A stretch of DNA of 64,000 nt from a virus (taxonomy: Duplodnaviria; Caudoviricetes), in the IMG/VR virus record IMGVR_UViG_3300035396_000186, positions 1 to 64,000 of that record; one strand, 5' to 3'. Of this stretch, positions 61,680 to 63,584 are shown one piece after another. Both the position numbers and the translations under genes were made by a program. Every line of letters begins with the position of its first letter. The stretch's first letter is position 1. The notes below the pieces were generated by a model. It saw nothing but the letters and a program-made list of their open reading frames with translations, did no database searches and was not told where the DNA came from.

Positions 61680-61877
61680 GTTTCTATACTCCGTAGGTTA
61701 TCACAATTTGCTATAACCTCAATACTATAAATAGAAATACTTTAAGTTTCTATAAGAAGTTGTTACTTAATATTACAATATAAGATCGGGAAAATCAAGC
61801 GTATGTATGTAACCGAATTTGTTAGGAAGTAAAATTATGTTTCTATAGTTAGAATTTACTAAAAATTGTGCTAGCTA

Positions 61878-62035
61878 AGCCTACACCACACCAACCACCA
61901 AGCCTACCCTACCCCCCCTACCTACGTCCTGCCATCCCCATGCCATAGACCTAGCCTCAACCCATAGCCTATACCCTAGCCCATGCCTCATCATGCTGAT
62001 ACTACAGGCATACCCATAGACTATACCCTAAGCAT
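61878..62035. repeat. C-rich strand-skewed short-repeat tract
   Basis: CC(C/T)A-rich top strand; 17/19 direct repeat at 61961-61979 and 62013-62031. Confidence 0.7.
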
Positions 62036-62120
62036 ATACTATTTAGATTATAATACTATAAGCTATTATTGTTTATAGATATACTAAACGTTTTATATAC
62101 TAGACTATATGTTATTGCTA

Positions 62121-62184
62121 ATTGCATAATGCAATATTCTTGCATGAAGGAATTGCAGATTGCAAGATAATTGCACCGTGCAAT
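62121..62184. promoter_or_regulatory. Three palindromic TTGCA-N3-TGCAA operator-like sites
   Basis: TTGCA starts at 62122, 62153 and 62171, plus a half-site at 62140. Confidence 0.65.
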
Positions 62185-62376
62185 AGTGGATTTGAGGTGA
62201 GGGATAAGTGTTGTTGACCACATCTTTATCCATTCTTTTTATTTATATCCTATTTAGTCTTATCCCATTTGGGATCAGTATATTTTATTTATATATTGAT
62301 TGTTATATAAACGTATTATACGACACTAAACTTGTTATAACTTGTATTCCTGCTCAACATATTGTACACTGTCAGT

Positions 62377-62901
62377 ATGATTATATTCCTACTATCTCTA
62401 CTAATTTCGTTTAGCTACTCCGCAGATCAACTTGAGTTATCATATTCGTTTCTAAGTTATCATGTTCCTAATAACCCCACAGACTCACACAAGTACTCCA
62501 ACAAGCTCGGCAATGGTCAAGCCATAACTAATCCACTCTTAGGACTAAGACGTACCAGAACTAGTAAGAACGGCTCATATGAGGCGTTAACTGTGTTCTC
62601 TGGTTCTAACAGCGTTGGTACTAATATGTCAGGACTTGTATACTCTACAGGTGAGTTCATCGATTCTAACTGGTACATTGGTTTTGTAGTTGGTGGCTAT
62701 ACTCAATCTCGTAGTGAGTTCAGACACAGAGGTATTGAGACTATGGGAGTTGGGATCACTCACGATCAAGAGATTCAACCCATTGTTGGGGCAGAAGTAG
62801 GCTACAAGTATGATATCAATTCTAAGTGGTTTATTAGACAGAACAATGTTATAACCCCATTTATAACTAATCATAGTCTGTCCATAGGGTTCTCGTTCTG
62901 A
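62377..62901 (+). CDS. Small outer-membrane beta-barrel protein
   Basis: Signal peptide, alternating amphipathic strands, terminal LSIGFSF BAM-type signal. Confidence 0.7.
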   Translation: MIIFLLSLLISFSYSADQLELSYSFLSYHVPNNPTDSHKYSNKLGNGQAITNPLLGLRRTRTSKNGSYEALTVFSGSNSVGTNMSGLVYSTGEFIDSNWYIGFVVGGYTQSRSEFRHRGIETMGVGITHDQEIQPIVGAEVGYKYDINSKWFIRQNNVITPFITNHSLSIGFSF

Positions 62902-63004
62902 TTGACTAGAGCTGCGCAGTTTGTCACTGATTTAGTATCTCTTTGCTACCAGTTTAGTGTCAATCTGATACCGATGTAGTCAGTATGATACCATCTAGTT
63001 TTTA

Positions 63005-63200
63005 TTGAACATCCCTGTTATTAAGTACATCCCATTTTCCTAGAGTTGGCATTAAGCTTGCAATGTATATTGTTAAGCAGGACGAAGCGAGCAGCTTCAT
63101 GGAGAGTCGAAGGCGAGCTAGTAGAAGCTCAACGTCTTTAACTCTAAGTTCTAACCGGATAGCTCAAGGGTAACGCTATAGGGGATAACATCCCTACAAT
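63005..63200 (+). ncRNA. Candidate structured RNA upstream of the ribozyme
   Basis: Non-coding, GC-enriched, several nested complementary stems (see findings). Confidence 0.5.
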
Positions 63201-63210
63201 CAATCATAAC

Positions 63211-63282
63211 AAGACGAAATAAGGCGAGTACGTTTAAACGTAGTTGCCTTATAGTACGTTGATAACGTACCTGAAGAGTCTT
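63211..63282 (+). ncRNA. Hammerhead ribozyme, type II
   Basis: AAGAC-GAAA-stem III-TA-stem I (GTACGTT/AACGTAC)-CTGAAGA-GTCTT; all core nucleotides and the G10.1-C11.1 pair present; predicted cleavage after 63253. Confidence 0.9.
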
Positions 63283-63300
63283 AATAACAAGGGAGTATAT

Positions 63301-63378
63301 ATGACATTTGAAATATTCTTTTACACAACTGCAATCCTATTAGTATTCAAGTCTATCATAATAACAATGAGCAGATAG
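63301..63378 (+). CDS. 25-aa hydrophobic peptide
   Basis: GGGAG SD; MTFEIFFYTTAILLVFKSIIITMSR. Confidence 0.55.
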   Translation: MTFEIFFYTTAILLVFKSIIITMSR

Positions 63379-63398
63379 TTTATAACTAAGAGGTATTT

Positions 63399-63584
63399 AT
63401 GTGGTATTGCACAGAACATTTCAATTTAAGAGTGAGACAACGTGGGTTCTGCAAACAAGATATACTTAGTACTCTTAGACATGGATACAAGGTTTTTATA
63501 GCCGATAGTGTCCATGTATGCTACAATGGAATCACTATTGTAGTTGATGGCAACAAACTAATAACTATTTATAGAGGTAATTAA
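63399..63584 (+). CDS. DUF4258-like small protein
   Basis: TEHFNLRVRQRG....I...L..G...IVVDGNKLITIY; GAGG SD. Confidence 0.6.
   Translation: MWYCTEHFNLRVRQRGFCKQDILSTLRHGYKVFIADSVHVCYNGITIVVDGNKLITIYRGN

Follow-up and report, generated by a model that had tools for sequence, protein, structure and literature searches.

The gene-free DNA at positions 63005-63300 of the window is, on balance, probably the non-coding 5′ leader at the head of an early operon, with a sigma-54-type start and a hammerhead ribozyme that cuts it off before the first gene. The window, i.e., the 64,000-nt stretch of DNA that was analyzed, is the initial 64 kb of an IMG/VR virus record that is 82,209 bp long and has an estimated completeness of 95%. 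In the proposed pathway, transcription would start at approximately 63073 from the promoter at 63047-63062, and the first ~137 nt of the RNA would form a few modest hairpins, after which the type II hammerhead at 63211-63282 would fold and cut after A63253. Given the type II geometry, a stem III hairpin is predicted at the end of the upstream RNA and a stem I hairpin at the beginning of the mRNA. The 5′ product would be ~181 nt long and carry a 2′,3′-cyclic phosphate at its end, after the stem III hairpin, while the 3′ product, the early mRNA, would carry a 5′-OH, the stem I hairpin at its tip, and a fixed 48-nt UTR before the start codon. The ribozyme would define the 5′ end of the mRNA whatever the transcription start, and the leader would be discarded or, at most, be a by-product with a side role. 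In read-through transcripts, the best reading of the leader is that it constitutes an intercistronic spacer.

This layout, with one or more sigma-54-type promoters, a long untranslated leader, a hammerhead, and a ribosome-binding site (RBS) within ~20 nt, is testable. It fits a natural "insulator" that would give the early mRNA one defined, hairpin-capped 5′-OH end. That the promoter is used, that cleavage takes place in vivo, and that both affect mRNA stability and translation is what we infer from the features described below.

As far as 61.7 kb, the minus strand carries the structural genes (terminase, portal, and major head protein), and a long file of small plus-strand genes extends from 62.2 kb to the end of the record. 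The ribozyme and the leader sit inside a 400-nt gene-free gap, and no ORF led by a Shine-Dalgarno (SD) sequence was found in 62902-63301. A 179-aa plus-strand ORF (62362-62901) adjoins the gap upstream. It gave no Pfam or PHROG match; a structure-based look-up returned a PagP/OmpX-like 8-stranded outer-membrane beta-barrel (Atlas feature score 0.96, TM 0.76). On the basis of this modeled resemblance, the ORF would be a moron-type gene, pointing to a Gram-negative host. On the other side of the gap, the first early ORF encodes a 25-aa hydrophobic peptide (plus strand, ATG at 63302, stop ending at 63379) and has its SD, AAGGGAG, at 63289-95. No relatives of the neighboring 86-aa, 179-aa, and 187-aa ORFs were found in IMG/VR, and a 61-aa protein has no companion among 5.8 billion protein clusters.

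The hammerhead ribozyme and its counterparts in relatives

A sequence descriptor together with folding identified the type II hammerhead at 63211-63282 on the plus strand. Stem II is an open helix of 5 bp between AAGAC (63211-15) and GTCTT (63278-82), and GAAA at 63216-19 supplies G12A13A14 together with A15.1. Stem III is a 34-nt two-part hairpin of 9+5 bp (63219-63252), stem I pairs GUACGU(U) with (A)ACGUAC over 7 bp (63254-63270), and the core sequence CTGAAGA (C3-U4-G5-A6-N7-G8-A9) is positioned at 63271-77. Loops close off stems I and III while stem II is open, i.e., the topology is type II, with 7, 5, and 9 bp in stems I, II, and III, respectively. According to published acceptance rules, the core-adjacent pairs should be standard and H17 should not be G (PMC3088659). 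In the window, these pairs are all standard [G63278-C63215 (G10.1-C11.1), G63254-C63270 (N1.1-N2.1), and A63219-T63252 (A15.1-U16.1)] and H17 is A63253, thus not G. The original prediction that a non-coding stretch runs into a type II hammerhead is borne out, with severing predicted at 63253|63254.

The descriptor has a single match on the two strands of the window (128 kb), and among 200 dinucleotide-shuffled versions of the window, none contained a hammerhead match with stems of at least 6/4/6 bp. Judged from its sequence, the type II hammerhead is real and well beyond chance. Moreover, the predicted fold of a transcript covering 63073-63340 contains the complete hammerhead with all three stems, stem II having a pair probability of 0.5-0.6.

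The Rfam Hammerhead_II model (RF02276, gathering threshold 37 bits) left the ribozyme unreported even at E <= 10, while it scores the ribozyme of one relative, L125, at 45.8 bits. We attribute the miss to the length of stem III, the AT richness of the stems, and the absence of the consensus tail. At 21.6 bits (E 3e-4), the ribozyme site was the best match in the window for a model seeded from two relatives. This model mis-threads the 5′ side of the ribozyme, and the match is therefore only loose support; it also produced a false match in coding sequence at 723-772. An alignment of 12 family hammerheads made with MAFFT was too poor and was rejected as a model basis. Type II hammerheads mostly carry a loop I pseudoknot, in which at least 4 pairs are formed with nucleotides just after stem II. 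By eye, UUG in loop I of the window copy can pair with CAA at 63287-89, with two more pairs past a mismatch and no run of 4 pairs. No other CUGANGA core, which could represent a second ribozyme upstream and hence a circular or excised RNA, was found in 62902-63400, nor does the phage encode an RtcB ligase. A hammerhead-specific pattern had 0 matches in metagenomes, and a generic type II pattern gave 119 stretches in IMG/VR, nearly all of them acidic coding sequence, with a few real hammerheads and none like the window copy; these stretches were rejected.

The related sample comprised 85 loci around the terminase genes of relatives of the large terminase protein (TerL). Hammerheads of type II or III are present on the early-gene strand at ~17 distinct loci in this sample, where they occupy matching positions. 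Most of the 17 tabulated ribozymes end 1-29 nt before an SD-led start codon, the distance in the window being 18-19 nt.

Several arrangements in these relatives deserve a description of their own. In the type III hammerheads at L123:6277-6329, L145:5141-5195, and L155:1310-1361 (minus strand), the 3′ strand of stem III is the RBS (AAGGAA), and a start codon follows within 1-5 nt. With the RBS inside stem III, cleavage and loss of the 5′ fragment would uncover it. Two distant relatives carry a pair of type II hammerheads around a conserved gene of ~90 aa with the motif SVYGLQ(R/K)FPV(T/S)LY (L139:2204-2630 and L174:3097-3554, minus strand), and such a pair around one gene fits a role in mRNA processing. 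In the window, in L125:5236-5430 (minus), and just below the 5141 ribozyme of L145 (minus), a small hydrophobic peptide of membrane type is the product of the first gene that follows the hammerhead.

The probable promoter and transcript start

A sigma-54-type -24/-12 element, TGGCAT-N5-TTGCA (TGGCATTAAGCTTGCA), is located at 63047-63062 on the plus strand, 149 nt 5′ of the ribozyme. The pattern scanned was TGGCAY-N5-YTGCW, the consensus being TGGCAC-N5-TTGCW with exact -24/-12 spacing. The element is an exact consensus match and the only one in the window, where 0.17 would be expected. A single exact site also turned up in 17 of 100 shuffles of the window, and one sigma-54 site alone is not compelling. 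The 85 related loci, however, hold 73 sites of this type (64 distinct) vs 3-4 in shuffles, an ~18-fold excess. These sites cluster where the early genes begin, in the control region, mostly on the strand of those genes, and several of them lie 25-40 nt before an SD and an ATG, as expected of working promoters. The recurrence of the promoter site and of the hammerhead in relatives, like the features of the window and their statistics, is a direct observation. The sites in relatives are often tandem, 18-19 nt apart, and are sometimes found on both strands (L179:3650-4050, L173:120-290, and L149:5780-5895, minus); many are followed by (G/A)CATGA at the expected start.

Since the relatives carry the same sites at the same place, the RNA probably starts near 63073, in which case the 5′ product would be ~181 nt rather than ~250 nt long. 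With this start, TAGAGTT and the first GCTT..CAAT strand, which the original prediction had included in the RNA, would be promoter DNA. The start at ~63001 that had been deduced from an extended -10 element is not supported. The element, TGATACCAT, is present at 62986-94 and represents the second copy of a tandem dyad; the sigma-54 site takes its place as the likely promoter. In addition, an RNA starting at 63001 is predicted to lose stem II of the hammerhead (see below).

The dyads, GTCA-N3-TGATACC, extend over 62959-62992, and exact copies occur only at 62959 and 62979 in the 64-kb window. They are 20 bp apart, at approximately -114 and -94 relative to the predicted start, where activator sites classically lie, which makes them candidates for an activator (enhancer) site. 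Genes for a sigma-54 activator (PF00158 protein) are absent from the phage, and use of the promoter would hence depend on a host factor. A sigma-70-like sequence, TTGGCA-16-TATTGT, overlaps the sigma-54 site.

The shuffle statistics and the missing activator gene could also be accommodated if there were no promoter here. The stretch would then be the 3′ tail of the 179-aa gene plus a spacer, and the hammerhead would split two cistrons, which we regard as quite unlikely. The sigma-54-like site would either be fortuitous or bind a host factor without making RNA, and this too we consider distinctly improbable. The absence of a terminator in the DNA searched between the 179-aa gene (after 62901) and the ribozyme agrees with such a reading, as does the finding that a type II hammerhead directly follows a gene in L123, L155, and L161. 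Against it, the site falls where the relatives have dense clusters of the motif, several of the relatives' sites are at promoter distance from an SD and ATG, and the tandem dyads are positioned upstream as described above. Our preferred reading keeps the sigma-54-type start.

Folding and conservation of the leader

The original prediction saw a structured RNA of ~200 nt fused to the hammerhead. On the plus strand, 63001-63300 indeed folds better than its shuffles (z -5.4), but this signal is borne by the hammerhead. The hammerhead alone gives z -5.3 whereas 63005-63209 alone gives z -0.9, and the claimed upstream structure is therefore weak. For 63038-63172, the z is -2.0, and for 63074-63209 it is -2.2 and -2.35, values that are reached in 1 of 25 control windows (4%) taken elsewhere from this genome. 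The strong score of the 300-nt fold is the hammerhead itself plus one marginal long-range helix. In this respect, the leader is a control case, illustrating that an apparent "structured RNA" signal can come from an adjacent ribozyme and promoter DNA. The leader body has a GC content of 0.46 vs 0.25-0.36 in nearby non-coding DNA, and this excess is a mild point in favor of structure.

In the predicted fold of the leader body (63073-63209, plus strand; z -2.2 to -2.35), a Y-shaped domain covers 63079-63152. Its P1 pairs 63079-83 with 63148-52 and its P2 pairs 63084-88 with 63094-98, while the long arm is built from 63103-07/63141-45, 63109-14/63134-39, and 63115-19/63126-30. Two hairpins are predicted 3′ of this domain, 63159-63/63175-79 and 63181-86/63190-95. 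The words quoted in the original prediction are all correctly placed, i.e., TAGAGTT at 63041-47, AACTCTA at 63140-46, AGGACG at 63079-84, CGTCTT at 63133-38, and ACATCCC at 63009, 63027, and 63188. Its GAAGC/GCTTC, GAGCT/AGCTC, and TAGGGGAT/ATCCCTA hairpins are part of the minimum-free-energy fold, and the ATAGC/GCTAT hairpin appears in the fold of the transcript with the sigma-54 start. For the enclosing helices, the strands are present, but the fold prefers other partners, AGAGU 63103-07 with ACUCU 63141-45 and AGGAC 63079-83 with GUUCU 63148-52.

The long-range helix that closes the 300-nt fold has two of the ACATCCC copies in its 5′ arm (63009-63031, upstream of the sigma-54 site). Its 3′ arm (63276-63296) overlaps with G8-A9 as well as with the 3′ strand of stem II and the RBS (both arms, plus strand). 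Its energy is -19.3 kcal/mol vs -14.5 +/- 2.4 for shuffles (p ~0.05). With 63009-63031 upstream of the sigma-54 site, the 5′ arm would be RNA in read-through transcripts only. No terminator was found before the ribozyme, so read-through RNA may exist, and this raises the idea of the leader as a cis-acting switch. In read-through RNA, 63009-63031 would pair with 63276-63296 and block both stem II and the RBS, a reading that we hold to be rather unlikely. Its corollary, that only transcripts started at the sigma-54 site are cut and translated, is likewise rather doubtful.

The predicted folds agree with the switch. In 63001-63340, the pair probability of stem II drops to 0.00, and the SD is paired with 63010-63016 at 0.97-0.99, while the fold from 63073 forms the hammerhead. 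CGUCUU at 63133-38 can, moreover, pair with AAGACG at 63210-15. The long-range helix, however, barely beats shuffles and is only 19th among the inverted repeats of a 1.85-kb stretch. Co-transcriptional folding would, in addition, favor the local hammerhead. We therefore retain the reading of a leader that is removed by the ribozyme and serves as a spacer in read-through RNA.

Searches for relatives of the leader covered several collections. Rfam reported no family at gathering scores, either in the window or elsewhere in the genome. Over 62850-63450, where the threshold was relaxed to E <= 10, there was no riboswitch, intron, or RAGATH model; ARAGORN found no tRNA or tmRNA. The original prediction had likewise been unable to place the stretch in a riboswitch, tRNA, tmRNA, or intron family. 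Its suggested search for a known family thus returned none for the leader, and the RAGATH models that it had named as the nearest precedent did not match either. Two Rfam candidates, Yfr20 (E = 1) and TMV_UPD-PK3 (E = 9.8), were rejected as chance-level matches on the minus strand. Blastn against 50,697 phage records revealed no homologue of the leader. Comparison with the leaders of relatives (81 related loci, blastn and nhmmer) gave no similarity outside the hammerhead core. A covariance model, R1 (63073-63209 with its predicted structure), was run against related loci totaling 1.13 Mb and gave no match at E <= 10. A pattern for the leader had 119 matches in metagenomes, all at chance level and 0 fitting R1. 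The word CAAGCCTAG, which is shared by the leaders of L125, L127, and L139, was also rejected, as it occurs at chance frequency overall and its version in the window is loose.

The suggested comparison of homologous loci therefore turned out negative, with no homologue of the leader in the 81 related loci by blastn, nhmmer, or covariance model, and the status of an RNA gene finds no backing in conservation. The best TerL relatives among 5.8 billion protein clusters have 54-56% identity, many of them on contigs of ~80 kb, and the best TerL match in cultured phages has 30% identity. The phage thus has no close relative. The leader appears to be without detectable conservation, and the relatives (TerL <=56%) are so distant that absence is weak evidence, too weak to speak strongly against an RNA gene. 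Nothing shows that the stretch is a conserved RNA gene of its own, and the leader as an RNA gene has too little support to matter yet.

Long leaders are nonetheless a feature of the phage group. In L125, L139, L157, L174, and L179, 140-425 nt of non-coding DNA separate the last sigma-54 site from the first hammerhead. These five leaders share no sequence, and their z ranges from +0.3 to -2.8. Taken as a class, the leaders have slightly more structure than control windows, a hint of some role for a leader as such. A GC-rich, slightly structured leader in the window, together with long leaders in relatives, would be odd for pure waste.

These features can also be read as signs that the 5′ product, ~181 nt long with a start at 63073 or ~253 nt with a start at 63001, acts as a stand-alone regulatory RNA of the phage, the hammerhead giving it a precise, hairpin-protected 3′ end. 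This we consider unlikely. The ~181-nt RNA would then belong to a set of ribozyme-bounded non-coding RNAs that evolve fast and are encoded where the early genes of this uncultured ~80-kb phage group begin, the L123/L155 RNA being another member, a view to which we also give a low probability. If true, it would mean an RNA 3′ end that is formed by a ribozyme and not by a terminator or a host nuclease. The elevated GC content, the z of the leader body, and the 9+5-bp stem III hairpin in which the product would end are in keeping with such an RNA, and ribozyme-bounded non-coding RNAs seem to exist in the phage group (L123/L133/L134 and L155).

On the other hand, no homologue of the leader was found in the 81 related loci, the phage records, Rfam, and the metagenome scans, and 63005-63209 does no better than shuffles. 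A scan for antisense targets across the phage genome yielded two 13-mers, with 0.4 expected, neither of them near a start codon, i.e., no target beyond chance. Moreover, the leader is unlike the L123/L155 RNA, which sits on the opposite side of its type II ribozyme. As stated at the outset, we prefer a leader that is discarded or at most persists as a by-product.

Minus-strand DNA at L123:6270-6660 (with identical copies in L133 and L134) and at L155:1300-1645 contains a type II and a type III hammerhead that surround 230-275 nt devoid of ORFs. The segment between the ribozymes has a z of approximately -4. When the two sequences are aligned with the ribozymes included, 28 of the 85 predicted pairs persist despite two-sided changes. 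The segment is a candidate for a non-coding RNA excised by ribozymes. Nhmmer detected no similarity between this RNA and the window. A pattern scan for further copies was set aside, giving only chance matches in coding sequence and the two contigs already in hand.

Comparison with known systems and neighboring putative control elements

Hammerheads are known to flank genes in prophages, and the type II topology is common in bacteria and phage DNA [PMC3088659 (Perreault et al. 2011)]. In the haloviruses HF1/HF2, a hammerhead is located 13 nt before the first early gene, and a mapped 5′ end coincides with the cleavage site (PMC3088659). In the published picture, phage messages are cut into gene-sized pieces (PMC3088659). 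Two features link the window to these systems. Its ribozyme is positioned a few nt before the RBS of the first gene in an early polycistron, and among its relatives are some with two ribozymes around single genes. In contrast to the published cases, cleavage of the window copy is predicted, and the Rfam type II model fails to report it. It has a two-part 34-nt stem III and shows no clear pseudoknot between loop I and the tail, and upstream of it lie a ~137-nt leader and a sigma-54-type promoter.

The role proposed for the window ribozyme has a counterpart in synthetic biology. RiboJ ribozyme insulators, reportedly described by Lou et al. in Nat Biotechnol in 2012, operate on a principle that we take to be the same. 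A hammerhead removes the 5′ leader added by the promoter, and a hairpin with a fixed short UTR remains. RiboJ is, however, engineered and derived from a type III satellite-RNA hammerhead, whereas the element in the window is natural and of type II, and its insulating effect is something that we infer.

RAGATH motifs, said to have been reported by Weinberg et al. in 2015, are structured RNAs found beside self-cleaving ribozymes, some of which are reportedly in Rfam. Their definition rests on conservation and covariation over many loci. The window resembles them in having a foldable non-coding segment that adjoins a hammerhead in phage DNA. It differs from them in that the segment fits no Rfam model at E <= 10 and lacks a detectable homologue.

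In enterobacteria, GlmY and GlmZ are sigma-54-dependent small RNAs of ~150-200 nt, and GlmZ is processed by RNase E. The putative window RNA would be alike in size and in being made from a sigma-54 promoter that overlaps a sigma-70-like sequence, the one mentioned above. Unlike GlmY/GlmZ, it has no sequence or model match to them, and its processing would be carried out by a ribozyme.

Other repeated elements are present upstream of the gap. The divergent control region of the window carries C-rich direct repeats at 61877-61922 (AAGCCTAC...), in two copies 23 nt apart, and similar CCTACCCCCC repeats are found upstream of the sigma-54 sites in six relatives (L125, L127, L138, L143, L146, and L149). 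Between the divergent gene blocks, at 62119-62185, there are three AATTGCA-N3-TGCAAT-like palindromes, spaced by 31 and 18 nt, which likely represent an operator set.
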